A DNA stretch of 6,980 nt from Legionella sp. (GTDB taxonomy: Bacteria > Pseudomonadota > Gammaproteobacteria > Legionellales > Legionellaceae). The notes under the pieces are model-generated. The model saw only the letters and a program-made list of their open reading frames with translations. It searched no databases and was not told the origin of the DNA. Below, in pieces: positions 1 through 6,980 of the stretch. The stretch is from positions 1-6,980 of the forward strand of contig DAIAOV010000137.1 in NCBI GenBank assembly GCA_027437055.1. Reading direction: 5' to 3'. Each line of letters opens with the position of its first letter. Positions within the stretch are counted from its first letter, which is position 1. The position numbers and the translations under genes were made by a program.

Positions 1-116
1 GGCGGGGGGCGCAACCACATCATCCTCGATATGGCGCTTCGGGAAAGAAGCTTGCGGTTCGGTCGGTTCCGGACGTTTGGTGCCGGCGGATGGGACCGGC
101 ATGCACCATGGGGGAT
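1..116. other. GC-rich chromosomal flank outside the AT-rich island; no gene assigned
   Basis: By hand count, nt 1-120 are 77/120 G+C (64%). Most of the window beyond about nt 165 is visibly AT-rich. The ORF track has no ORF here. Confidence 0.5.
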
Positions 117-161
117 TGGTGGCCAAGGGCGGAATCGAACCACCGACACAAGGATTTTCAG
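117..161 (-). pseudogene. 3' portion (45 nt) of tRNA-Phe(GAA) lacking the 5' half; candidate att-site remnant at the island boundary
   Basis: The reverse complement reads CTGAAAA-TCCTT-GTGTC-GGTGG-TTCGATT-CCGCC-CTTGGCC-A-CCA. These segments are the anticodon loop with GAA, the 3' anticodon-stem strand, the variable loop, a full T-arm (GGTGG/CCGCC with one G.U), the 3' acceptor strand, discriminator A and CCA. The expected 5' acceptor strand GGCCAAG, the D-arm and the 5' anticodon-stem strand are not present in 162-195. Confidence 0.85.
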
Positions 162-287
162 ACTCTAACTGACCGTAATTATTAAGTTTTTTCAGTAAGA
201 TGTTCTTTGCAAATCCCTGTGTTAATGATGACATTGGTAATACGGCTTATCAAAATATTTCTTGGATTATCGATCATATTTACAGGT

Positions 288-316
288 AACAAGCGTCTAA
301 AGTTTGGACGCTTGTT
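288..316 (-). terminator. Hairpin 17 nt downstream of the lipoprotein stop codon; copy A of the GCGTCTAAA-N-TTTGGACGC palindrome
   Basis: AACAAGCGTC (288-297) pairs perfectly with GACGCTTGTT (307-316), a 10-bp stem with a 9-nt loop. Neither strand has a clear U-tract after it, so its terminator function is uncertain. Confidence 0.45.
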
Positions 317-333
317 TAATTAAACATGTTACT

Positions 334-2151
334 TCAACTACCTGAATTACCGTTTACATTCGAGTGAGTAATCATAACGGAACTACTTGAGTTATTAGTA
401 AATTCAATCACATTTACAAATCCGCTAGGGGTTAGTTCAGCAGTAACGGGCGCGGCAGGAGTTGTACTATTATCTGTTAATCCAAAATATACTCTACTAT
501 CAGTTACAGTAGAATATTCATTGTTTACATAATAACTGCCACCATTTAATGTTGTTAAAGAAGGTGCTGTAACTGTTCCGCTTGATAAATCATAAATTAA
601 TACTGTAGCGTTATTTTGTAAAGGACAACCTAGCGTTGTCACGCAGCTGCCACCAGCATAGGGGTTATAATTGAAGTCTTGCATATACATTGCATTTGCT
701 GCTCTTATGTATTGAACTGAGGATAAGTTTCCGGTCCAACTCAAACTATTTTGTGATCCCGTATAAACAATTTGAGATGTAGCACATTGATTTGCAGTCA
801 AAGTACGTGAATATCTAACCAAGTCAAATTTACCATCTGATGGACTATGAGCCGACCATTGAAAACTATAGAAAGAACTACCGTCAGAAGAAGGGATAAT
901 CCCATCTGTAGTTGAATTCACACCTAAACCTGCTTCATTAACAGCCGTACCACCCAGATTTTGAAATATAACTGAACTATTAGTTGTATCAATTGTAGCG
1001 TGTACTAATAGAGTATTAGTACCACAAGGTTGATAACTAGATGAATTTGTTCCAACCATAAAATAGAAATCATGAGTACTACTGTTACTTGGATTTGATA
1101 AACCAAAATTGTTGTAGGTAATTTGAGTAACATCGCTAACATTAATTTGCGACAACTGTTGTAATAAAGAAATAGCGAGTGGCGATTGATTAATATCTAT
1201 ATTGTAGCTATTTGAAGCAGTCAAAGTAGTTTGATTAATTGTTATGACTTGTGCTTGAGTTGGATCCTGTAAACTTGGATTAGTTACAACATACTGTGTA
1301 AGCGTAACTCCTTGGGCTGGATTTGAGCTACTTCCGTTATTACTTGTGAATTGATTTAATATAATATCCCCGTTTTCAAGCCCCCAAAAATGTCCGAAAA
1401 AGTAATTATGATTGTTTGCCATTGCAACCCCATAACCATCTGCCGAAGTTCCATATTCCATGAATGGAATAACGACAGTAGGCGTTGTCCCTGTAAAATC
1501 TAGCCTAATAAAGCCAACATAATCATTTTGATTATTTACATTTGTATAAAAACCTGCAAAAAAATATTTTCCGTTATATGTAAGCTGTCCAGGTGTTTGA
1601 CCTGAAGCAGGGTCAAGGAAAAAAGACGGATTTCCGGTTAAAGATCTATTTGGGAGATTAAGAGTAATACAAGTAGTATCGCCAGTTGATTTATTGATTG
1701 TGACTAAATCACAATTGTTCCCATTTGCGTCAGTAATATTAGTAACCGCTAATACTACATAACTACCCGCATCTTGCACCCCTGTTACACACGAACTAGA
1801 AGAGGAGGATGAGGTTAATCCAACTAAATTCCAAGATGTCAAACTAGATGATGACATAAGATTAGATGAGCAATTTGTTACTGTTTGCGCGTAAGCGACT
1901 GAAGATGGAAAAAGTTTTTTAAAAAAATTAAATATATTTGGTTGAAAGAAGCTATTACTTGCAATTACTTTTCCACCACTTAGACTACCTGATGTCCCAA
2001 TAGTTAAATGAGAATTAGTAGTAGCACCAATATTTTGATTTAATTGTTGCGGGCTAGTTTGAGTTGTAGTACTTCCTCCCCCTCCACCACCACCGCAAGA
2101 ACTCAAGAGGAACACAAACAACAATATTAATAACTTTTTAGTCGCACTCAT
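334..2151 (-). CDS. Large secreted lipoprotein (605 aa), Ser/Thr/Asn-rich, function unknown
   Basis: This is a long ORF. A GGAGG Shine-Dalgarno (reverse complement of 2159-2163) lies 6-7 nt before the ATG at 2151. The N-terminus MSATKKLLILLFVFLLSSC has a basic n-region, a hydrophobic core and the lipobox L-S-S-C. A Gly7 linker (CGGGGGGGS) follows the Cys. Confidence 0.9.
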   Translation of the reverse strand: MSATKKLLILLFVFLLSSCGGGGGGGSTTTQTSPQQLNQNIGATTNSHLTIGTSGSLSGGKVIASNSFFQPNIFNFFKKLFPSSVAYAQTVTNCSSNLMSSSSLTSWNLVGLTSSSSSSSCVTGVQDAGSYVVLAVTNITDANGNNCDLVTINKSTGDTTCITLNLPNRSLTGNPSFFLDPASGQTPGQLTYNGKYFFAGFYTNVNNQNDYVGFIRLDFTGTTPTVVIPFMEYGTSADGYGVAMANNHNYFFGHFWGLENGDIILNQFTSNNGSSSNPAQGVTLTQYVVTNPSLQDPTQAQVITINQTTLTASNSYNIDINQSPLAISLLQQLSQINVSDVTQITYNNFGLSNPSNSSTHDFYFMVGTNSSSYQPCGTNTLLVHATIDTTNSSVIFQNLGGTAVNEAGLGVNSTTDGIIPSSDGSSFYSFQWSAHSPSDGKFDLVRYSRTLTANQCATSQIVYTGSQNSLSWTGNLSSVQYIRAANAMYMQDFNYNPYAGGSCVTTLGCPLQNNATVLIYDLSSGTVTAPSLTTLNGGSYYVNNEYSTVTDSRVYFGLTDNSTTPAAPVTAELTPSGFVNVIEFTNNSSSSVMITHSNVNGNSGS

Positions 2152-2239
2152 ATGAATCCCTCCCCAATACGATTTTTATAAGTATTTCTAATAATTTATT
2201 ATGCTTATTAAATATTATTATTTGTAAAAGATCAACTTT

Positions 2240-2407
2240 TTATACTTTTCGTAGTTGTTTCTGTGCTTTCTGAATTTTTTGTCTTGCTCGCTCTGCCTTA
2301 ACGGCCTGTTGAGCTCTTTTTGCTTGATCTTGAAGGGATTTGATTTTTGCTTGATCTGGTGTAATGGGTTTAGCAGTTTTTGGTGTAATAAATTCAAATG
2401 CTCGCAT
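2240..2407 (-). CDS. Small Lys/Gln/Ala-rich protein (55 aa): MRAFEFITPKTAKPITPDQAKIKSLQDQAKRAQQAVKAERARQKIQKAQKQLRKV
   Basis: I translated this by hand; it is not in the ORF track. The ATG at 2407 lies 3 nt after the stop of the upstream 48-aa ORF. The protein has a heptad-like charged composition. It is in a different frame from the TTG-initiated 66-aa track ORF at 2218-2418. Confidence 0.5.
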   Translation of the reverse strand: MRAFEFITPKTAKPITPDQAKIKSLQDQAKRAQQAVKAERARQKIQKAQKQLRKV

Positions 2408-2410
2408 TGT

Positions 2411-2557
2411 TTACCCAACCTTTACAGGATAAGAGATTAAATTATCTGACCCGTATAGTTTTCTTAATAAAAGAGATGCATTATTTGCATTGTCAGAAAA
2501 GACTATAGTATTAATCACTAATCCGCCAACCTTAACTGACGCTTTGTATTTGTTCAT
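2411..2557 (-). CDS. Small protein (48 aa): MNKYKASVKVGGLVINTIVFSDNANNASLLLRKLYGSDNLISYPVKVG
   Basis: I translated this by hand; it is not in the ORF track. It starts at the ATG at 2557. Its stop (2411-2413) is separated by only ACA from the next ATG, which suggests translational coupling. No convincing Shine-Dalgarno lies upstream, so confidence is modest. Confidence 0.4.
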   Translation of the reverse strand: MNKYKASVKVGGLVINTIVFSDNANNASLLLRKLYGSDNLISYPVKVG

Positions 2558-2562
2558 ATAAT
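2557..2562 (+). promoter_or_regulatory. Candidate -10 box (TATAAT) for the ncRNA
   Basis: A perfect TATAAT lies 17 nt upstream of the first stem (2579). The -35 is weak; the best candidate is TTAACT at 2532-2537 with a 19-bp spacer. The box overlaps the start codon of the minus-strand 48-aa ORF. Confidence 0.35.
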
Positions 2563-2568
2563 TATTTA

Positions 2569-2788
2569 TCAGTTGTATCGCAATGACTCCTGTCTGGACT
2601 CGTCATTGCGATGCTGGTTCGATTGCATCAGTATTCTCAAAACGCTGCCATGTGGCGCTTCAAATACTGGACGCCATACTCCCTAAGCTCGCCACAGGGC
2701 GTGGCAGGGAGTTATGTCTTGCATCTCACCTACGATGGTCTGCTCTCAAGTGTCGCAGACTTGGGGTGCTGGCCCGCACCCCGTTTTT
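2569..2788 (+). ncRNA. Candidate structured ncRNA (~220 nt), family not recognised
   Basis: By hand count, 2581-2780 are 110/200 G+C (55%), versus 15/60 (25%) for 2461-2520. The block contains consecutive perfect stems. They are 2579-2587/2602-2610 (9 bp), 2610-2614/2625-2629 (5 bp) and 2630-2635/2663-2668 (6 bp), the last enclosing 2643-2648/2652-2657 (6 bp with two G.U pairs). They continue with 2678-2684/2706-2712 (7 bp), which encloses 2691-2695/2701-2705 (5 bp, loop AGGGC), then 2738-2743/2755-2760 (6 bp) and the terminator stem 2763-2769/2776-2782 followed by T5. The G.U pairs and the T-tract favour the plus strand. The overlapping 75-aa ORF has no Shine-Dalgarno and an implausible composition. 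Confidence 0.6.
2763..2788 (+). terminator. Rho-independent terminator
   Basis: GGGGTGC (2763-2769) pairs with GCACCCC (2776-2782) around the loop TGGCCC, followed by G and TTTTT (2784-2788). The T-tract overlaps the stop codon (2787-2789) of the convergent 146-aa gene. Confidence 0.75.
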
Positions 2789-3227
2789 AACGCTTGAAAC
2801 CACTTTTTAAGCCTGCACTGGCTGTTTCTATCTGCGCATCTAATTCGCCTATTTCAACTGCTTTTTTGATCGCTTCTAATGTTTTAATCAGATCATCGGC
2901 ACTGGACACCTCTACGCTAGGCTTACCTTTTGCTAATTCTATTGTCCAACTACCATAGCGAATTGATACACATACCTTGCCATTTTCAGAAACAAACCAC
3001 CATGGCTTTATTCGTTTTGGCATGGATAGTTGCTTTCTTAGCCCTGTTTCTTTATCTATAAATGTTTTATTTTTCATTACTTGGAATTGGCTGCCGTCTT
3101 GTTGGCTTTTGGCTAGCTGTATTTGTTCCCATATCTTTGTAGATAATTTATTTCTACGCATGAGAATTGGCGCAATTTGACGGGGTTTCTTTACAGATAC
3201 TAATTTTAATGTGGCTAATGTGCTCAT
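2787..3227 (-). CDS. Basic 146-aa protein of unknown function (possible nucleic-acid binder)
   Basis: An AGGAG Shine-Dalgarno (reverse complement of 3234-3238) lies 6 nt before the ATG at 3227. The N-terminal half is K/R-rich (VKKPRQIAPILMRRNKLSTK, PKRIKPWWF). The C-terminal part is acidic and helical-looking. I do not recognise a family. Confidence 0.85.
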   Translation of the reverse strand: MSTLATLKLVSVKKPRQIAPILMRRNKLSTKIWEQIQLAKSQQDGSQFQVMKNKTFIDKETGLRKQLSMPKRIKPWWFVSENGKVCVSIRYGSWTIELAKGKPSVEVSSADDLIKTLEAIKKAVEIGELDAQIETASAGLKSGFKR

Positions 3228-3372
3228 TTGGTTCTCCTATAAATTGAATGGGCACACTTACTATATTGTCGATTTTCCAAAAGAACGACCGATTTCTGCC
3301 TTTAATGTTATTTCGATTAATTTTTCGCAGAAAATTTATACATTTCCTTAGTAAGAGATAAATATTTGTGCG

Positions 3373-3541
3373 AGTTGCTTGGTTGCCATGCAGTCGCTGA
3401 TATAAAAGTAGTTGCTAAGTTGGTTGCAACTAAGTGAGTTACAAATGAGTAACTATGACTCTTTAACTCAACAAGCGACCAACTCACTAGCAACATCTTT
3501 TGGAATCGACTCTTTCAGCAACCAAACTTGCGACTTGCAAC
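3373..3541. repeat. Array of about ten NNTTGC/GCAANN hexamers, including long-range inverted repeats
   Basis: Forward-orientation hexamers are AGTTGC at 3373 and 3410, GGTTGC at 3381 and 3422, and ACTTGC at 3526 and 3533. Reverse-orientation hexamers are GCAACA at 3490, GCAACC at 3518 and GCAACG at 3537. GTTGCAAC at 3423-3430 is palindromic. Two inverted pairs exist, each with one bulge: 3417-3427 with 3518-3529, and 3430-3440 with 3481-3490. Confidence 0.5.
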
Positions 3542-4026
3542 GAGAACTCAATCAAATACAAAGGAGAATGATTATGAGAGATATCGCAGTTAGAGGATTT
3601 ACAAACGACAAATTTAATACCACATTTGGCAAAGGGTTATTTAGACGAGCACTATTTAATGGATCAGTAGAACTGACCAATCCCAATCAAAAATATTTAG
3701 TAGATTATCTTACCTTTCAAGATTGGCAGAATACAGCAAAATCAGATGAACAAATGGCCATACTACATAAGTTATACAATTCTGGATTTACAGATACAGA
3801 CGAGATCTTCTGTTCTTGGGTTAAGCACTACGAACCTATCAGTAAAACTAAAACAGATGTTGGTGGTTTCTCTGTATATTCTATTGGTACACAAGAGCTA
3901 TATATCAGCATAGATGATGCCGAGCATGGAACAGTAGAGGATTGGTCATTAACCGTCAAAAACTGTGACAAATTAGGTGTAAACAAGCCAGTCTTTCTAG
4001 CAACTAATCTTAATTACATAAATTAA
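3445..4026 (+). CDS. Hypothetical protein (193 aa from ATG 3445; alternatively 150 aa from ATG 3574)
   Basis: The track ORF starts at TTG 3412. ATG 3445 has a weak Shine-Dalgarno-like TAAGTGAG. ATG 3574 has an excellent AAAGGAGA (3560-3567) with about 7-nt spacing. The frame stays open for 54 codons upstream of 3574 in AT-rich DNA, which argues for the longer form. I do not recognise a family. Confidence 0.65.
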   Translation: MSNYDSLTQQATNSLATSFGIDSFSNQTCDLQRELNQIQRRMIMRDIAVRGFTNDKFNTTFGKGLFRRALFNGSVELTNPNQKYLVDYLTFQDWQNTAKSDEQMAILHKLYNSGFTDTDEIFCSWVKHYEPISKTKTDVGGFSVYSIGTQELYISIDDAEHGTVEDWSLTVKNCDKLGVNKPVFLATNLNYIN

Positions 4027-4046
4027 GTAATTAAAACCACCTCAAC

Positions 4047-4122
4047 AAAGCCCTACAAGCACAGATCAATTAATTTACAGCGTCTAAACTTTGGACGCTA
4101 CTCAAACAGCTTGTAGGGCTTT
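4047..4122 (+). terminator. Compound 76-nt hairpin downstream of the 193-aa gene; contains copy B of the palindrome
   Basis: A perfect 14-bp outer stem joins AAAGCCCTACAAGC (4047-4060) and GCTTGTAGGGCTTT (4109-4122). It encloses the inner hairpin AGCGTC/GACGCT (4079-4084/4094-4099). The structure starts 20 nt after the stop codon and is followed by TTTATAA-like sequence rather than a clean U-tract. Confidence 0.5.
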
Positions 4123-4177
4123 ATAACAGCGATTATTCAACAGGCAGTCATTTATTAGATAAATACATATAAGAATG

Positions 4178-4209
4178 TTAGTTAAGAAAAGTGTAGTTTT
4201 CTTAAGTAA
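4178..4209. promoter_or_regulatory. 13-6-13 inverted repeat upstream of the short recombinase gene (candidate recombinase core site or operator)
   Basis: The sequence is TTAGTTAAGAAAA (4178-4190), GTGTAG (4191-4196), TTTTCTTAAGTAA (4197-4209). The arms are complementary at 12 of 13 positions, with the inner 9 perfect. The spacer is asymmetric. The repeat lies 113 nt upstream of ATG 4322. Confidence 0.5.
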
Positions 4210-4321
4210 GTTTATAAGTCATTGATTATTGGATGATTCTTTTTCTAAAGATTTCGGTCGCCCATTTTAGGAAAAGAAAACATACTAATAATGCGTTTTT
4301 ATTATCTAAGGAGCAGACAAC

Positions 4322-4888
4322 ATGGCACAAGCAAAAACACTAACCCAATCAGAATTAGATCAAGTACTGCGTTATGCAAGCTCAAGACAATATCCCGAGC
4401 GCAATCGTGCTTTAATTTTAAGTAGTTTTTATTTAGGGCTTCGTGTTGCAGAAATTGCCAGCCTTAAATTGGGAGATGTTGTAAATGACGATGGAATAAT
4501 AAAAAATGAAATTAAATTATCTGCCAGTCAAACCAAAGGCGGACATCCAAGAACTGTGTATATTCCAGAAAAGCTCAAACCTGAATATCGTTCATATTTA
4601 ACCACTCGTCATATCAAAGATCCCACTGTTCCATTTTTCCATACAGATAATAGACTAGGCTTTAGTGCAAATGGATTATGTGTTTGGTTTTTTAATCTTT
4701 ATAAAAACGCAGGTATCAGTGGAGCATCAAGTCACTCTGGTCGTAGAACTATGATAACGGGGTTAGCTAACAAAGGAATCAGTGTGCGTGTCTTAGCAGA
4801 AATCGCAGGACATCGTTCCATCACAGTTACACAAAAATATATTGATACTAATCCTGAGATGATGAGAAACGCAATGAATTTAATATAA
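4322..4888 (+). CDS. Short (188 aa) tyrosine recombinase, catalytic domain only
   Basis: An AAGGAG Shine-Dalgarno (4308-4313) lies 8 nt before the ATG. All the catalytic motifs are present: LGLRVAEI (Arg I), SQTKGG (Lys), SHSGRR (H-x-x-R) and AGHRSITVTQKYI (His and the Tyr nucleophile). There is no room for an N-terminal core-binding domain. Confidence 0.9.
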   Translation: MAQAKTLTQSELDQVLRYASSRQYPERNRALILSSFYLGLRVAEIASLKLGDVVNDDGIIKNEIKLSASQTKGGHPRTVYIPEKLKPEYRSYLTTRHIKDPTVPFFHTDNRLGFSANGLCVWFFNLYKNAGISGASSHSGRRTMITGLANKGISVRVLAEIAGHRSITVTQKYIDTNPEMMRNAMNLI

Positions 4889-4901
4889 GAAAATCTTAGA
4901 T

Positions 4902-5021
4902 ATTTTTTCGATTTTTCTGTCAAGTTTTTAGCAACTTTTCTAAAAACATGAATCATTTTTTCGATTTTTCAGTCAAGTAAATTATTTTCATTTCAAATTA
5001 GACTGAAAAATCCGAAAAAAT
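4902..5021. repeat. Three copies of a 21-24-bp unit (two direct, one inverted) between the recombinase gene and the 331-aa gene
   Basis: R1 (4902-4925) is ATTTTTTCGATTTTTCTGTCAAGT. R2 (4955-4978) is ATTTTTTCGATTTTTCAGTCAAGT, identical at 23 of 24 positions and 53 bp from R1. R3 (5001-5021) is inverted; its reverse complement is ATTTTTTCGGATTTTTCAGTC, with one inserted G. An 8-bp hairpin, GTTTTTAG (4924-4931) with CTAAAAAC (4940-4947), lies between R1 and R2. Confidence 0.8.
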
Positions 5022-5026
5022 ATAAC
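4999..5026 (+). promoter_or_regulatory. Candidate promoter of the 331-aa gene with repeat R3 as its spacer
   Basis: TAGACT (4999-5004) is followed by a 16-nt spacer and TATAAC (5021-5026). The spacer GAAAAATCCGAAAAAA is the core of repeat R3. Confidence 0.4.
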
Positions 5027-5097
5027 CTAGTAACACTAACACAGCAATCGACAATTCGTCACATAAGTCTGAGTTAGATTTTTTGGAGAAATTTATC

Positions 5098-6093
5098 ATG
5101 GGTAAAATCGAAAACTTAAGTAATGTATCTAATAGTCAAACAGTAGATAATGCAGATAACTGTAAACAAGTCTTTAGCCTAAAAAATCTCTTTGGCGCTA
5201 ATACTACCGTTAACAGCACAGTAATTCGACCAAGTCTAATTAAAGATCAGGAAAAACAGATCATTAATGCAATTGAACAATGTGACTTAATTGCAAAAAT
5301 GAATAAAGAATTTCATGATCAATACATAGTACGCGGCAATCAAGCACTATATAAGATTCTTAGTAACATTTACGAAGTTGCAATTAAGATTGATTTGTCT
5401 ATAGCAAAAGATCAGATCTACAAGAAAATGCGTGAAATACTAAAAGAACGCGGTATTAAAACCCAAACGAACACTCCTAACCTTACTGTTTTGGTCAAAT
5501 ATATCGTTGGCGGGGATCGTAAGACTGCTACAAACTATACGAGGGTACTTAGTGTTGCTATAGAAGAAAATATTGCTGTTAACGAATTGGCTGAATATAT
5601 TTCTCGTCGAGGTGGTATTGGTCAAATTTATGAAACAGAACAAAAACACAACGCTAAAAAATTAGCCAATGAGTTTAGTAATGATCGGTTAACGCTTTTA
5701 CGCGAGTATTTCTTGCTAAAACAATGGGAGGTTAATAAACATTTTGAATTTGATGAACCTGTAGTTATCCATAATGCTGATAAAAAAACGAGTGCAGAAA
5801 CTGGAGATTTTTGTGTTTTCTTAACAGTATGGGATGATAAATCCAATGTATATAGAATTGTTTCTGCTAATGATTTAGGTAAGACTTATGAAGATTCACT
5901 TTTACGCCTAATGGTAAAAGATGCACCTAAGGACATCCAAACAATCAAATCTGGTCTTATGAACTACAAACGAGCCCTACTTAAAAAAGGCTTGTTACCA
6001 GACATGTTAGCGGAAATAACAAAAAAGGAAATTACGGATGCTAGTAAGTCTGATAAGAAAAAACAAACACCCGTAGTTATTGAACAAGCTTAA
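5098..6093 (+). CDS. Hypothetical protein (331 aa), family not recognised
   Basis: A GGAG (5085-5088) lies 9 nt before ATG 5098. The track start, TTG 5083, overlaps this Shine-Dalgarno and is unlikely. The long ORF ends just before a strong terminator. Confidence 0.85.
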   Translation: MGKIENLSNVSNSQTVDNADNCKQVFSLKNLFGANTTVNSTVIRPSLIKDQEKQIINAIEQCDLIAKMNKEFHDQYIVRGNQALYKILSNIYEVAIKIDLSIAKDQIYKKMREILKERGIKTQTNTPNLTVLVKYIVGGDRKTATNYTRVLSVAIEENIAVNELAEYISRRGGIGQIYETEQKHNAKKLANEFSNDRLTLLREYFLLKQWEVNKHFEFDEPVVIHNADKKTSAETGDFCVFLTVWDDKSNVYRIVSANDLGKTYEDSLLRLMVKDAPKDIQTIKSGLMNYKRALLKKGLLPDMLAEITKKEITDASKSDKKKQTPVVIEQA

Positions 6094-6105
6094 GTTGTAC
6101 ACCTT

Positions 6106-6136
6106 GACACTGAGGCTGCCACCTCAGTGTCTTTTT
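6106..6136 (+). terminator. Rho-independent terminator between convergent genes
   Basis: GACACTGAGG (6106-6115) pairs with CCTCAGTGTC (6122-6131), a 10-bp perfect stem with a 6-nt loop, followed by TTTTT (6132-6136). The integrase stop codon is at 6138-6140 on the opposite strand. Confidence 0.8.
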
Positions 6137-6137
6137 A

Positions 6138-6980
6138 TTATGCCAACTTTTCCGCACTTAGCATAGGCGTTAATTTGGAGTAATGTCGCTCAATCATGCC
6201 TACACTAGTACCCATCTGTCTTGCCAGTGTATGTATATCAATCCCGTCAGCCAATGCAAAAGTAGCATAGGTATGTCTTAGGCTATAAAGCGTACGGTTC
6301 AAACCACTGCTGTCCTTTTTCAAGCCACTATCCCTCATTAGATTACGGAAAACTCCTTCCATTTGATAGGGATGATTTCCATCAGGAAAACAAAATATTC
6401 TTTTATCTAAATTATTCTTAATCACTGCATCCAAATTATCATAGGTTAATCCATGCCATTTAATGATTCTCTCTAGCGTATCTATAGCAGTATGTTTTGC
6501 TATCAAATAGCGTGGACCTGTTTTACCAGATACCCATATCCGTAAATATCGTTTATCCCCGATCCAGTGCCACTGTAGATGCCGCCATCTTAAAGGTAAT
6601 GCTTCTGTTCCGTGTCTTATGCCTGTATAAAGCAAGAATTCCACATATACACGACAAAGCCTGCGCATGAGTTTTTCCTGTCGCATCCTACCGCCCTGTT
6701 CCCAAGACTCCATAAAAGCCAATAGTTGATCTATTTCCTGCCTAGTAAAAGCTGGCCTTGCTTGGCTTGCACGGCCACGAGCGTCTAAACTTGGGACGAT
6801 AGTATGTGGAAATATCTGACCAGACTCTCTTGCATGGTTGATAACTCTATTAAATGCGCTGGCATGATTGCGTTTGGTGCTGGCTCTAGGCTCTTTAGAC
6901 ATTTCACTGATTCGCCATGACTCAAAATCTGCGATGATTTCCTGTGTGATTTCTTTGATGTCATATCTGCCAAAGAATGG
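6138..6980 (-). CDS. Tyrosine integrase of the island (5'-partial; N-terminus beyond the window)
   Basis: The catalytic-domain motifs are YTGIRHGTEA (Arg I), VSGKTGPRYL (Lys), YSLRHTYATFA (box II Arg) and MIERHYSKL (Tyr). Translating by hand upstream of the track start at 6902, the same frame stays open to nt 6980 (PFFGRYDIKEITQEIIADFESWRISE-MSKEP...). The gene therefore starts outside the window. Confidence 0.9.
   Translation of the reverse strand, partial: PFFGRYDIKEITQEIIADFESWRISEMSKEPRASTKRNHASAFNRVINHARESGQIFPHTIVPSLDARGRASQARPAFTRQEIDQLLAFMESWEQGGRMRQEKLMRRLCRVYVEFLLYTGIRHGTEALPLRWRHLQWHWIGDKRYLRIWVSGKTGPRYLIAKHTAIDTLERIIKWHGLTYDNLDAVIKNNLDKRIFCFPDGNHPYQMEGVFRNLMRDSGLKKDSSGLNRTLYSLRHTYATFALADGIDIHTLARQMGTSVGMIERHYSKLTPMLSAEKLA
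6780..6799. repeat. Copy C of the palindrome motif, inside the integrase coding sequence
   Basis: AGCGTCTAAACTTGGGACGA matches 4079-4098 (AGCGTCTAAACTTTGGACGC) at 18 of 20 positions. The first 13 nt are identical. On the minus strand it encodes ...VPSLDAR... of the integrase. Confidence 0.7.

Follow-up and report, generated by a model that had tools for sequence, protein, structure and literature searches.

A lineage-specific, GC-rich non-coding block in a variable cargo slot of a betaproteobacterial integrative island

In the 6,980-nt stretch of DNA analysed here (the window), a GC-rich, hairpin-forming and non-coding block of about 150 to 230 bases lies between two minus-strand genes of a widespread integrative/mobile island, the host of which is a Ferrovum-like bacterium. 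The block is real and conserved inside one narrow lineage, and the position that it occupies is a variable, swap-prone cargo slot. Nothing shows that the block is a new RNA partner for the island proteins, and the new material in the slot comprises only a GC-rich core of about 150 nt. Our preferred, tentative reading is that the block is a lineage-specific non-coding cassette in the cargo slot, which may act as a cis spacer of a minus-strand operon message.

The island is flanked by a 46-nt tRNA-Phe repeat. Its backbone consists of a small tyrosine recombinase, a 193-aa protein, a DUF6641 protein and two small proteins of 48 and 55 amino acids; a conserved palindrome and the variable slot can be counted with it. 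The island recombinases are a 188-aa protein of FimB/FimE size and a large integrase. The slot is located between the upstream DUF6641 gene (146 aa, 2787 to 3227) and the downstream small genes p48 (48 aa, 2411 to 2557) and p55 (55 aa, a basic protein, 2240 to 2407), all of which are backbone genes on the minus strand. DUF6641 (Pfam PF20346, E 1e-14) has 1830 relatives; searches of IMG/VR and of phage records found none, and plasmids gave only weak matches. Its AlphaFold model (mean pLDDT 65) matched no fold in the PDB (best E 1.7), and a literature search for DUF6641 returned 0 papers. Searches of the neighbouring proteins with PADLOC, PHROGs and NCBIfam yielded integrase matches and one PHROG of unassigned function, and nothing else. 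Relatives of p48 were found by tblastn in 28 loci, and its start context TAAATA-N5-ATG (2555 to 2568, minus strand), which has no Shine-Dalgarno sequence, is present in 28 of 28 related loci. These include loci in which the DUF6641 stop codon lies only 17 nt upstream, which argues for an operon with internal translation starts. TAAATA was also considered as the -10 box of a leaderless p48 mRNA and rejected; the hexamer lacks the invariant final T, and an operon-internal translation start is therefore more likely.

The compositional contrast that had first drawn attention to the block was reproduced on recomputation, with a G+C content of 0.55 at 2581-2780 versus 0.25 at 2461-2520 and a mean of 0.36 for the island (114-6980). 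The block contains perfect inverted repeats of 11, 7, 7 and 6 nt and a near-palindrome with 10-nt arms; its hairpins are mutually unrelated in sequence, and it has no terminal inverted repeat. Only the core (2614 to 2761, G+C 0.53, no strand assigned) is without a counterpart in the nearest relative, as the BLASTN alignment to the Ferrovum locus L091 (loci are given by number) ends at 2609 and restarts at 2776. Reading the sequence, we noted a 6-nt direct repeat, TGCTGG, that flanks the core at 2612 and 2767.

When 80 DUF6641 loci were searched with the block by BLASTN, nhmmer and tblastx, only near-identical copies were recovered. BLASTN, nhmmer and a covariance model matched the block in four near-identical haplotypes only, while the backbone without the block is found in more than 80 loci of Polynucleobacter, Methylophilaceae, Limnohabitans and Ferrovum. 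The core is present only in L001-L010, L097, L103-L111 and partly in L101. The sequence searched, about 25 kb from the same genome plus 650 kb from related islands, contained no second copy of the block, and a covariance model of the core found nothing in the 650 kb. BLASTN in distant mode with 2400-3300 gave no match in plasmid and phage collections, and the central hairpin was not found in viral contigs. A metagenome scan with the anchor TGTATCGCAATGACTCCTG, which is conserved between L091 and the window, yielded a single L091-type contig plus two chance matches, in a collection that missed the JGI contig L010 and is thus not complete in its sources.

Among related loci, the distance that separates the p48 start from the DUF6641 stop spans 17 to 1139 nt. 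Short distances (17-87 nt) occur often, in about 15 loci, and long gaps are filled by unrelated cargo in either orientation, for example an HNH nuclease or lipoproteins. Over more than 80 related islands, the slot is either short (17-85 nt) or taken up by such cargo. In the closest relatives (L091, L094 and L102) the cargo genes are on the plus strand. L091 has both the first hairpin and the terminator's 3' arm, separated by an AT-rich gene for a 193-204-aa protein; by our reading, this protein starts with a signal-peptide-like sequence. L094 carries cargo without any hairpins. The preliminary description of this DNA had presented the block as the core of an RNA-protein system. This proposal is not supported, given the occurrence of the backbone proteins in more than 80 loci without the block and the protein genes that the nearest relatives carry in its place. 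Judged by this distribution, the neighbouring island proteins do not need the block, and it is no obligatory RNA partner for them. Absence from otherwise identical islands, which had been named as evidence against the proposal, nearly describes these relatives, which share the backbone genes yet are not otherwise identical.

The features at the two edges of the block belong to the slot rather than to the core. The first hairpin (2575 to 2614, no strand assigned) has perfect 11-nt arms at 2577-2587 and 2602-2612, extendable to 13 pairs, and lies 7 nt upstream, in the minus-strand sense, of the p48 start context. Its arms, GCAATGAC and GTCATTGC, are kept in L091-L093 and L100, all of which lack the core, and in about one third of 28 related loci the position is occupied by a strong hairpin with an unrelated sequence. 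The first hairpin is thus a backbone element that belongs to the slot frame. At the other edge, the predicted intrinsic terminator is indeed present on the plus strand (2762 to 2788), as a GC-rich stem of 7-8 pairs (2762-2783, 6 G-C among 8) with the loop TGGCCC, followed by five T residues that overlap the TAA stop codon of the minus-strand DUF6641 gene. The counterpart of its 3' arm and tract, CCCCGTTTTTAA, in L091 is the homologous CCCCGTTATTAA, which lies 3' of the plus-strand cargo gene. The terminator 3' arm and T-tract are therefore also part of the slot frame, common to the block and its nearest relative. In L097, T2785G changes the tract to TGTTT, and in L107, G2763A together with G2783T breaks the basal stem pair of the terminator. 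The T-tract is altered in two of the four haplotypes.

A perfect TATAAT hexamer is present on the plus strand at 2557-2562, where it had been proposed as the block's own -10 box. The hexamer overlaps the p48 start codon, and as the mirror image of the conserved p48 translation-start context on the other strand it is accounted for without a promoter; the same sequence occurs in L037, a locus without the block. No -35 hexamer was found 16-18 nt from TATAAT, the site was not called by a promoter scan, and the best -35-like hexamer that we could read from the sequence is TTAACT at a spacing of 19 nt. The location of the hexamer thus stands, whereas a sigma-70 promoter does not. TATAAT occurs 3 times in the window versus 11 times expected from shuffles.

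Several lines of evidence support the view that the block is no decayed gene. The 75-aa ORF on the plus strand (2583 to 2810), already doubted in the preliminary description, runs through the terminator, and C2733T introduces a stop codon into it in L097, L101 and L107 (two haplotypes). Its sole database relative is the truncated ORF of L097; without an independent relative and with a stop in two haplotypes, it is not a gene. A 59-aa plus-strand ORF (2611 to 2790) is open in all haplotypes and is likewise unsupported as a gene; it matched two tandem-repeat proteins with scores that sum weak repeat matches, which we judged spurious. Protein searches with the remaining four frames found nothing at E<=10. 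Nine of ten six-frame pieces had no Pfam family, and one 36-aa piece scored below threshold (E 0.063, 12.4 bits versus a cut-off of 27). Hence, the block has no protein relative in any of the six frames. A coding remnant was also considered on the grounds of plus-strand stop-codon depletion and rejected, as the depletion is not significant (p 0.08); two fully open plus frames are not very unusual at such a composition (p 0.03). As far as these comparisons of sequence go, the block is non-coding.

The whole block folds better than 200 of 200 dinucleotide shuffles (z -4.3 to -5.4), and it does so on both strands: the plus strand reaches -87.7 to -89.1 kcal/mol (z -4.3 to -4.55) and the minus strand -86.8 to -88 kcal/mol (z -4.6 to -5.35). 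With DNA parameters the z-score is -4.65. The description as a hairpin-dense structured block is correct overall, but the two edge hairpins contribute most of the signal, and the core alone (2614-2761) is only moderately structured (-49.1 kcal/mol, z -2.17 on the plus strand; -52.3 kcal/mol, z -3.05 on the minus strand). Three other intergenic segments of the window (4021-4140, 6061-6180 and 4921-5040) have stronger z-scores than any 120-nt window of the block. One of the previously drawn elements, a 5-bp hairpin (2610-2614 paired to 2625-2629), shares bases with the 3' arm of the first hairpin, so that only one of the two can form at a time.

A preference for the plus strand had been derived from three G.U pairs and from the T-tract. 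The minus strand folds equally well or better, and the G.U pairs are located in an optional helix extension and an alternative small hairpin, while the minus strand has wobble-dependent helices of its own. Over three haplotypes (window, L002 and L097) the fold energy spreads by 2.8 kcal/mol on the minus strand versus 8.5 kcal/mol on the plus strand; the L097 haplotype has its more stable fold on the plus strand (-90.9 versus -87.7 kcal/mol). The stem substitutions T2628C, G2691A and G2763A result in G.U pairs on the minus strand; on the plus strand two of them result in A.C, and T2628 is unpaired in the minimum-energy fold. Among four haplotypes of at least 97% identity, which provide almost no power, the substitutions that hit pairs break five in the plus fold with none rescued by wobble, and in the minus fold three pairs are rescued and four broken; a compensatory change on both sides of a pair was seen for 0 pairs on either strand. 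The plus-strand assignment is not supported, given symmetric folding, a lone -10 hexamer explained by the gene start on the other strand, a T-tract changed in two of four haplotypes, and pair-preserving substitutions on the minus strand only. Scans called no terminator-like site on the minus strand of the block and no promoter-like site inside it on either strand. The strand and the ends of any transcript of the block are what we infer from such features.

The block evolves slowly. L097 differs from the window at 5 of 229 block positions versus 30 of 242 four-fold sites (Fisher p 1.4e-5), and L107 at 7 of 229 versus 10 of 48 four-fold sites in the adjacent DUF6641 gene. Block divergence of 2.2-3.1% is thus 5-7 times slower than the 12-21% at flanking four-fold sites, and divergence resumes right outside the block, with 4 differences in 2791-2830. 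This slow divergence suggests that the block is probably functional, and a functional non-coding element is plausible on the basis of the alignments. Purifying selection on a core without any protein product makes action at the RNA level probable. Divergence in other intergenic parts of the island is 2.3-5.7% (Fisher p 0.29 versus the block), which indicates that the constraint is not specific to the block. The L001-L010 haplotype has two substitutions, both of which disrupt one hairpin.

The block belongs to none of the RNA classes that were searched. In agreement with the earlier failure to match it by eye, cmscan against Rfam 15 over the whole window, on both strands and at E<=1, gave 0 matches, including 6S, tmRNA, SRP, RNase P, ribozymes, riboswitches and omega-RNA/HEARO, and ARAGORN found 0 tRNA or tmRNA genes. 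Its distinction from type III antitoxins is confirmed by Tandem Repeats Finder, which reported no repeats at a minimum score of 30, the direct repeats being just 6-7 nt long, and its distinction from retron msr/msd by the absence of a reverse-transcriptase domain from all window ORFs. A tRNA-derived or secondary attachment site was considered and rejected, as only one 10-mer is in common; in the TGGTTCGATT loop at 2615-2624 we read no G53-C61 closing pair. An invertible promoter element for a recombinase of FimB/E size was rejected because the block lacks flanking inverted repeats.

According to our preferred reading, the block would be transcribed within a minus-strand message that covers DUF6641, p48, p55 and a lipoprotein gene. 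Read-through transcription is suggested by small genes that have no recognisable promoter of their own and by the absence of a minus-strand terminator ahead of them. In cis, the block would be a structured intercistronic spacer that could shield the DUF6641 segment at its 3' end or supply a processing site, and either role would uncouple one half of the operon from the other. The -10 hexamer and the terminator of the plus strand would then be punctuation inherited from the plus-strand cargo genes in the slots of relatives. Against such a spacer, a GC hairpin with T5, oriented opposite to both neighbouring genes, is a typical mark of an independent plus-strand RNA, and p48 might own an unrecognised promoter, in which case read-through is unnecessary. 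Furthermore, the entire 229 nt evolve slowly, but a spacer limited to mRNA stabilisation would need no conserved loops or single-stranded parts, and the four broken pairs of the minus fold are not compensated. Our best guess is nonetheless that a minus-strand operon transcript is slightly likelier than a separate plus-strand sRNA.

That separate RNA, which we consider possible but less probable than the spacer, would be an independent plus-strand small RNA of about 220 nt, carried as slot cargo without a protein partner. It would start about 7 nt past TATAAT (about 2569), pass through the first hairpin and the core and end at T5 (about 2788), with host or island mRNAs as its targets in trans, or with an antisense role in cis that counters read-through of the operon. 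An intrinsic terminator without a plus-strand protein gene upstream and a perfect TATAAT, rare in the window, are in line with this possibility, as are GC-rich structured sequence in an AT-rich genome, which is typical of RNA genes, purifying selection along the full length, and the greater plus-strand stability of the L097 haplotype. The cargo of L091, L094 and L102 is on the plus strand, and the gene of L091 ends at the homologous terminator arm, which implies that a plus-strand transcription unit is ancestral in the slot. However, TATAAT is fixed by the p48 start context and lacks a -35 partner, the T-tract and the basal stem pair are broken in L097 and L107, respectively, all five pair-hitting substitutions break plus pairs, folding gives the plus strand no advantage, and the block is limited to one near-clonal lineage. 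It is rather unlikely that the slot cargo is here an RNA gene in the fuller sense, i.e., a highly structured plus-strand RNA of about 220 nt and of no known family that replaces HNH nuclease or secreted-protein cargo and could be a new regulatory or phage- or competitor-directed RNA without a dedicated island protein. Equally unlikely in our view, the block has no function and is what remained of an earlier cargo gene, or of foreign DNA of higher GC, once cargo had turned over between the frame hairpins, with hairpins that are incidental to its GC content. The demonstrated turnover of the slot, the modest z-scores of the core (only -2.2 to -3.1), the lack of compensatory changes and the hairpin-disrupting substitutions of L001-L010 agree with a remnant, and so do assembly breaks inside the block in L101 and L112, which hint at strain heterogeneity. 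An unconstrained segment of 53-55% GC should decay fast in an AT-rich genome, though, and the block diverges far more slowly than the flanking four-fold sites, has no protein relative in six frames and shows no significant depletion of plus-strand stop codons.

It is improbable that the block works as DNA, whether as a recombination site for cargo exchange by the small tyrosine recombinase or as a hairpin-rich single-strand origin or transfer signal. The equal folding of both strands, the z-score with DNA parameters, the two recombinases of the island, the variability of the slot and the 10-mer TGGTTCGATT common to the block and the tRNA-Phe attachment repeat would all suit a DNA element, but this 10-mer match is near chance (p about 0.02 by our estimate), and homologous recombination in the conserved flanking genes suffices for cargo exchange. 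In addition, the frame hairpins vary in sequence among lineages, cargo can be present without them, as in L094, cargo boundaries have no repeated core site, and neither a relaxase nor a rolling-circle Rep domain was detected. Most improbable of all is a small protein from the 59-aa ORF, even though the frame is open in four of four haplotypes and four of its nine substitutions are synonymous (five non-synonymous, hand count). Its start codon is buried in the 13-pair first hairpin without a ribosome-binding site, no true relatives exist among 1.8 billion representative proteins, we estimate dN/dS at about 0.5 versus about 0.1 for backbone genes, and two open plus frames are, as noted, not very unusual.

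Should the core turn out to be a functional RNA, it would exemplify non-coding cargo that trades places with protein cargo in a defined island hotspot, and it would give the little-studied acidophilic and freshwater Betaproteobacteria an RNA outside any family. The present value of the analysis is mainly corrective, in that the proposed promoter, first stem and terminator belong to the slot frame. The widespread and wholly uncharacterised backbone may reward study more than the block. The slot hotspot itself sits in an island that is widespread in freshwater and acid-mine Betaproteobacteria.

Comparable arrangements are known from other systems. REP/BIME elements are GC-rich hairpin clusters between cistrons, as in the malE-malF spacer of E. 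coli, where they are co-transcribed and do not act as terminators in that orientation; they are thought to protect the upstream mRNA and to set differential expression. They come in families with a consensus and hundreds of copies, and RAYT transposases are associated with them. The block resembles them as a GC-rich hairpin cluster between operon genes, with co-transcription proposed, but differs by its mutually unrelated hairpins and by being single-copy in the 25 kb of genome and 650 kb of island sequence searched. Orphan sRNAs of islands and prophages, such as the Salmonella Isr sRNAs, DicF and IpeX, have mapped transcripts and promoters. Like them, the block is intergenic in a mobile island, has a terminator against its neighbours, is lineage-restricted and has no Rfam family; unlike them, it has a lone -10 hexamer explained by the other strand and a T-tract that is not conserved. 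Integron cassettes with attC hairpins share with the slot exchangeable and often promoterless cargo, imperfect palindromes at the edges and an adjoining tyrosine recombinase. In contrast to integrons, the island has no IntI-type integrase, its 188-aa recombinase falls far below the integron-integrase cut-off, no RYYYAAC/GTTRRRY core sites were seen by eye and the boundary hairpins are not conserved across cargo types. The closest parallel in position is an element of an uncultured betaproteobacterium (L015), which lies in the same slot and is likewise non-coding, GC-enriched (0.49 versus 0.41) and hairpin-dense, although the two are unrelated in sequence and only L015 has a terminal inverted repeat. 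This 140-nt palindromic element (z -8.3 and -8.7) is MITE-like, in that a terminal inverted repeat of 16 bp closes it and AGCT forms the centre of each of its four palindromic hairpins.

The GC-rich, hairpin-dense block at about 2557-2790 is real: a non-coding insert of moderate structure that evolves slowly, is restricted to one near-clonal lineage and sits in a variable slot. From position 114 onwards, the window is 98.9% identical to an island that some two dozen assemblies share, among them GCA_027344415.1 with a 635-kb contig, and the relatives of its proteins are labelled Ferrovum or Betaproteobacteria. A 46-nt repeat flanks the island, with one copy at 116-161 of the window and the second 12.7 kb away in the related island locus L002 (409-454). 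The window copy seems to correspond to the 3' 46 nt of a minus-strand tRNA-Phe(GAA), CCA end included; given its distant second copy, this is the attachment repeat of the island. Positions 1-113 (65% G+C) do not match the flank of loci L001-L010, which indicates a different neighbour in the window strain. On the minus strand, the block is preceded by the gene for a 146-aa DUF6641 protein (PF20346; 3227-2787) and followed by genes for a 48-aa protein (p48, 2557-2411), a 55-aa protein (p55, 2407-2240) and a 605-aa protein (2151-334), which we read as Ser/Thr/Asn-rich with a lipoprotein-like N-terminus. On the other side lie genes for a 193-aa protein, a tyrosine recombinase of 188 aa (FimB/FimE size), a 331-aa protein and a large integrase. 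In addition, the full island has a histidine kinase/response regulator pair, a permease for amino acids and toxin-antitoxin genes.

In one scan of species-representative genomes, DUF6641 relatives were recovered from 80 loci of Polynucleobacter, Methylophilaceae, Limnohabitans and other Burkholderiales, and in most of these loci the recombinase, the 193-aa protein, p48 and p55 also have relatives, arranged in the same order. None of the 80 contains the block, as judged by BLASTN, nhmmer and a covariance model of its core (2614-2761). The neighbouring proteins thus occur widely without it, and the earlier proposal of an RNA-protein system with the block as its core is not supported. In 29 loci, p48 starts 17 to 1139 nt after the DUF6641 stop. 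Gaps of 17-87 nt are common and often enclose the palindrome AAGCGTCC-N5-7-GGACGCTT. The cargo of long gaps is unrelated and can point either way: an HNH nuclease in L094, a protein with a signal-peptide-like N-terminus in L091, and elsewhere lipoproteins, a 341-aa recombinase-like protein or a membrane protein. In L015, the gap holds a 140-nt palindromic element (4470-4605) unrelated to the block, with fold z-scores of -8.3 and -8.7, a 16-bp terminal inverted repeat (ATCGGCGCCCCAAAT...) and four palindromic hairpins that all have AGCT at their centre; its appearance is that of a MITE or of a palindrome cluster at the DNA level. Since gap size and cargo vary among related loci, the block occupies a cargo slot.

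The punctuation that makes the block look most like a gene belongs to this slot. The nearest non-identical relative of the window is the Ferrovum locus L091 (DUF6641 identity 79%), and the alignment between the two reaches 2609 and starts again at 2776. L091 has the same arms of the first hairpin (2575-2614; GCAATGAC/GTCATTGC) and, in its terminator, a 3' arm and tract homologous to those of the window (CCCCGTTATTAA vs CCCCGTTTTTAA); between them lies a protein gene that is AT-rich and on the plus strand. Both the first stem and the terminator are therefore inherited slot parts. The terminator noted before was confirmed as a plus-strand hairpin at 2762-2783 with 8 pairs, 6 of them G-C, followed by T5. 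A plus-strand TATAAT is indeed present at 2557-2562; it overlaps the p48 start codon and has no -35 partner. It is the mirror of minus-strand GATAAATAATTAT-ATG, the identical sequence is found in the block-free locus L037, and the window contains only 3 copies of TATAAT against 11 expected. TAAATA-N5-ATG is invariant before every p48 gene in 28 related loci (2555-2568, minus strand, in the window), and none of these has a Shine-Dalgarno sequence there, including loci in which just 17 nt separate p48 from the gene before it. As a translation-start or regulatory context, this conserved arrangement is unusual.

The compositional contrast was reproduced, with a G+C content of 0.55 over 2581-2780 compared with 0.25 over 2461-2520 and an island mean of 0.36 (114-6980), as was the richness in stems (four perfect inverted repeats, 11, 7, 7 and 6 nt long, plus a near-palindrome whose arms measure 10 nt). 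On the plus strand, the block folds at -87.7 to -89.1 kcal/mol (z -4.3 to -4.55), more stably than 200 of 200 dinucleotide shuffles. The minus strand (-86.8 to -88 kcal/mol, z -4.6 to -5.35) and single-stranded DNA (z -4.65) fold equally well; the signal is thus palindromic and favours neither strand. When scanned in sliding windows of 120 nt, most of it fell in the two edge hairpins, the core alone reaching z -2.17 (plus) and -3.05 (minus), and three other intergenic regions of the window have stronger z-scores than every 120-nt block window.

Four haplotypes were compared (the window, L001-L010 and the like, L097 and L107), with L101 as a partial copy. No compensatory double change was found on either strand. 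All five plus-strand pairs hit by substitutions are broken; on the minus strand, three survive as G.U pairs (T2628C, G2691A, G2763A) and four do not. Fold energies in the window, L002 and L097 spread over 8.5 kcal/mol (plus) and 2.8 kcal/mol (minus), and the T-tract is altered in two haplotypes (TGTTT in L097, G2783T in L107). These data lean towards the minus strand, as hints rather than proof. In related islands, p48 and p55 can lie as close as 17 nt behind DUF6641, and their conserved start context is not a promoter and not a Shine-Dalgarno sequence either; the DUF6641 transcript is therefore their probable source of expression. In the window lineage, the block would then be part of a minus-strand DUF6641-p48-p55 RNA, and no terminator facing that direction was found at the block. 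We tentatively favour a role in cis between the cistrons, such as 3'-end protection, processing or uncoupling. A separate plus-strand sRNA, ending at the T5 hairpin, is the main alternative and somewhat less likely.

Between the window and L097, 5 of 229 block positions differ (2.2%), compared with 30 of 242 four-fold sites in five flanking genes (12.4%; Fisher p 1.4e-5), and differences start again directly outside the block. In the mosaic locus L107, 7 of 229 block positions and 10 of 48 four-fold sites of the adjoining DUF6641 gene differ. The block is therefore constrained, to a degree similar to the remaining intergenic regions (2.3-5.7%); statistically, it could not be told apart from codon positions 1 and 2 (1.3%; Fisher p 0.35). 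A non-functional remnant, which would fit the variable slot, is unlikely beside this constraint. The palindromic folding, shared by single-stranded DNA, would suit a DNA-level site, which we consider improbable, and a small protein is the most far-fetched reading. The 75-aa ORF (2583-2810) does run through the terminator hairpin, as noted in the preliminary description, and its sole relative is its own L097 copy, truncated to 50 aa by C2733T, with the same stop in L101 and L107. A 59-aa frame had only two matches, both tandem-repeat proteins with scores summed from many weak repeat matches. The other four frames had no protein match, Pfam gave nothing significant for the block frames, and plus-strand stop-codon depletion was not significant.

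The block resembles no known RNA, as first proposed: Rfam gave no match at E<=1 and ARAGORN found no tRNA or tmRNA. It is a structured, non-coding element of a mobile island, specific to one lineage and outside every Rfam family, and in function it would come closest to intercistronic hairpin clusters of the REP/BIME type or to orphan sRNAs encoded in islands. In the sequence searched (about 25 kb of the same genome and 650 kb of related islands), it does not show the multi-copy character that defines REP elements. Type III antitoxin RNAs differ by their repeats, no tandem repeats being found in the block, and retrons by their reverse transcriptase; the hallmarks of integrons are lacking too.

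The L001-L010 haplotype equals the window across all coding sequence (334-3227), and this common haplotype (L001-L010, L103-L111) carries G2691A and C2705A, which turn both partners of one predicted pair into A.A; window, L097 and L107 share G2691 and C2705. These non-compensatory, clustered changes could reflect a multi-nucleotide event, gene conversion or selection. The 605-aa protein (334-2151) is 42% identical in L097 (3403-4641), where the adjoining p55 is 96% identical, and L107 is mosaic in the opposite sense; the island recombines in or close to the block, and its surface protein is hypervariable.

The backbone (window 2240-4888; L011-L097), comprising the 188-aa tyrosine recombinase, the 193-aa protein, a divergent DUF6641 gene, p48 and p55, is conserved, entirely uncharacterised and widespread in Polynucleobacter, Methylophilaceae, Limnohabitans and Ferrovum, and its hotspot for cargo separates DUF6641 from p48. 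DUF6641, as modelled with AlphaFold (mean pLDDT 65), had no PDB fold match. The 21-nt near-palindrome AGCGTCTAAA(G/C)TTTGGACGCT occurs three times in the window: after the 605-aa gene (292-312), between the 193-aa gene and the small recombinase (4079-4099), nested in a 14-bp inverted repeat (4047-4122), and, as a weaker copy, inside the integrase gene (6780-6800). The same motif, as AAGCGTCC-N5-7-GGACGCTT, comes directly after the DUF6641 stop in many related islands, among them L012, L015, L016, L025 and L037; it may serve as a terminator specific to the island or be bound by one of its regulators or recombinases. Upstream of the 331-aa orphan gene, iteron-like repeats at 4889-5097, with ATTTTTTCGATTTTTC(T/A)GTCAAGT twice (4902, 4955) and an inverted copy at 5001-5019, may mark a replication or regulatory region.
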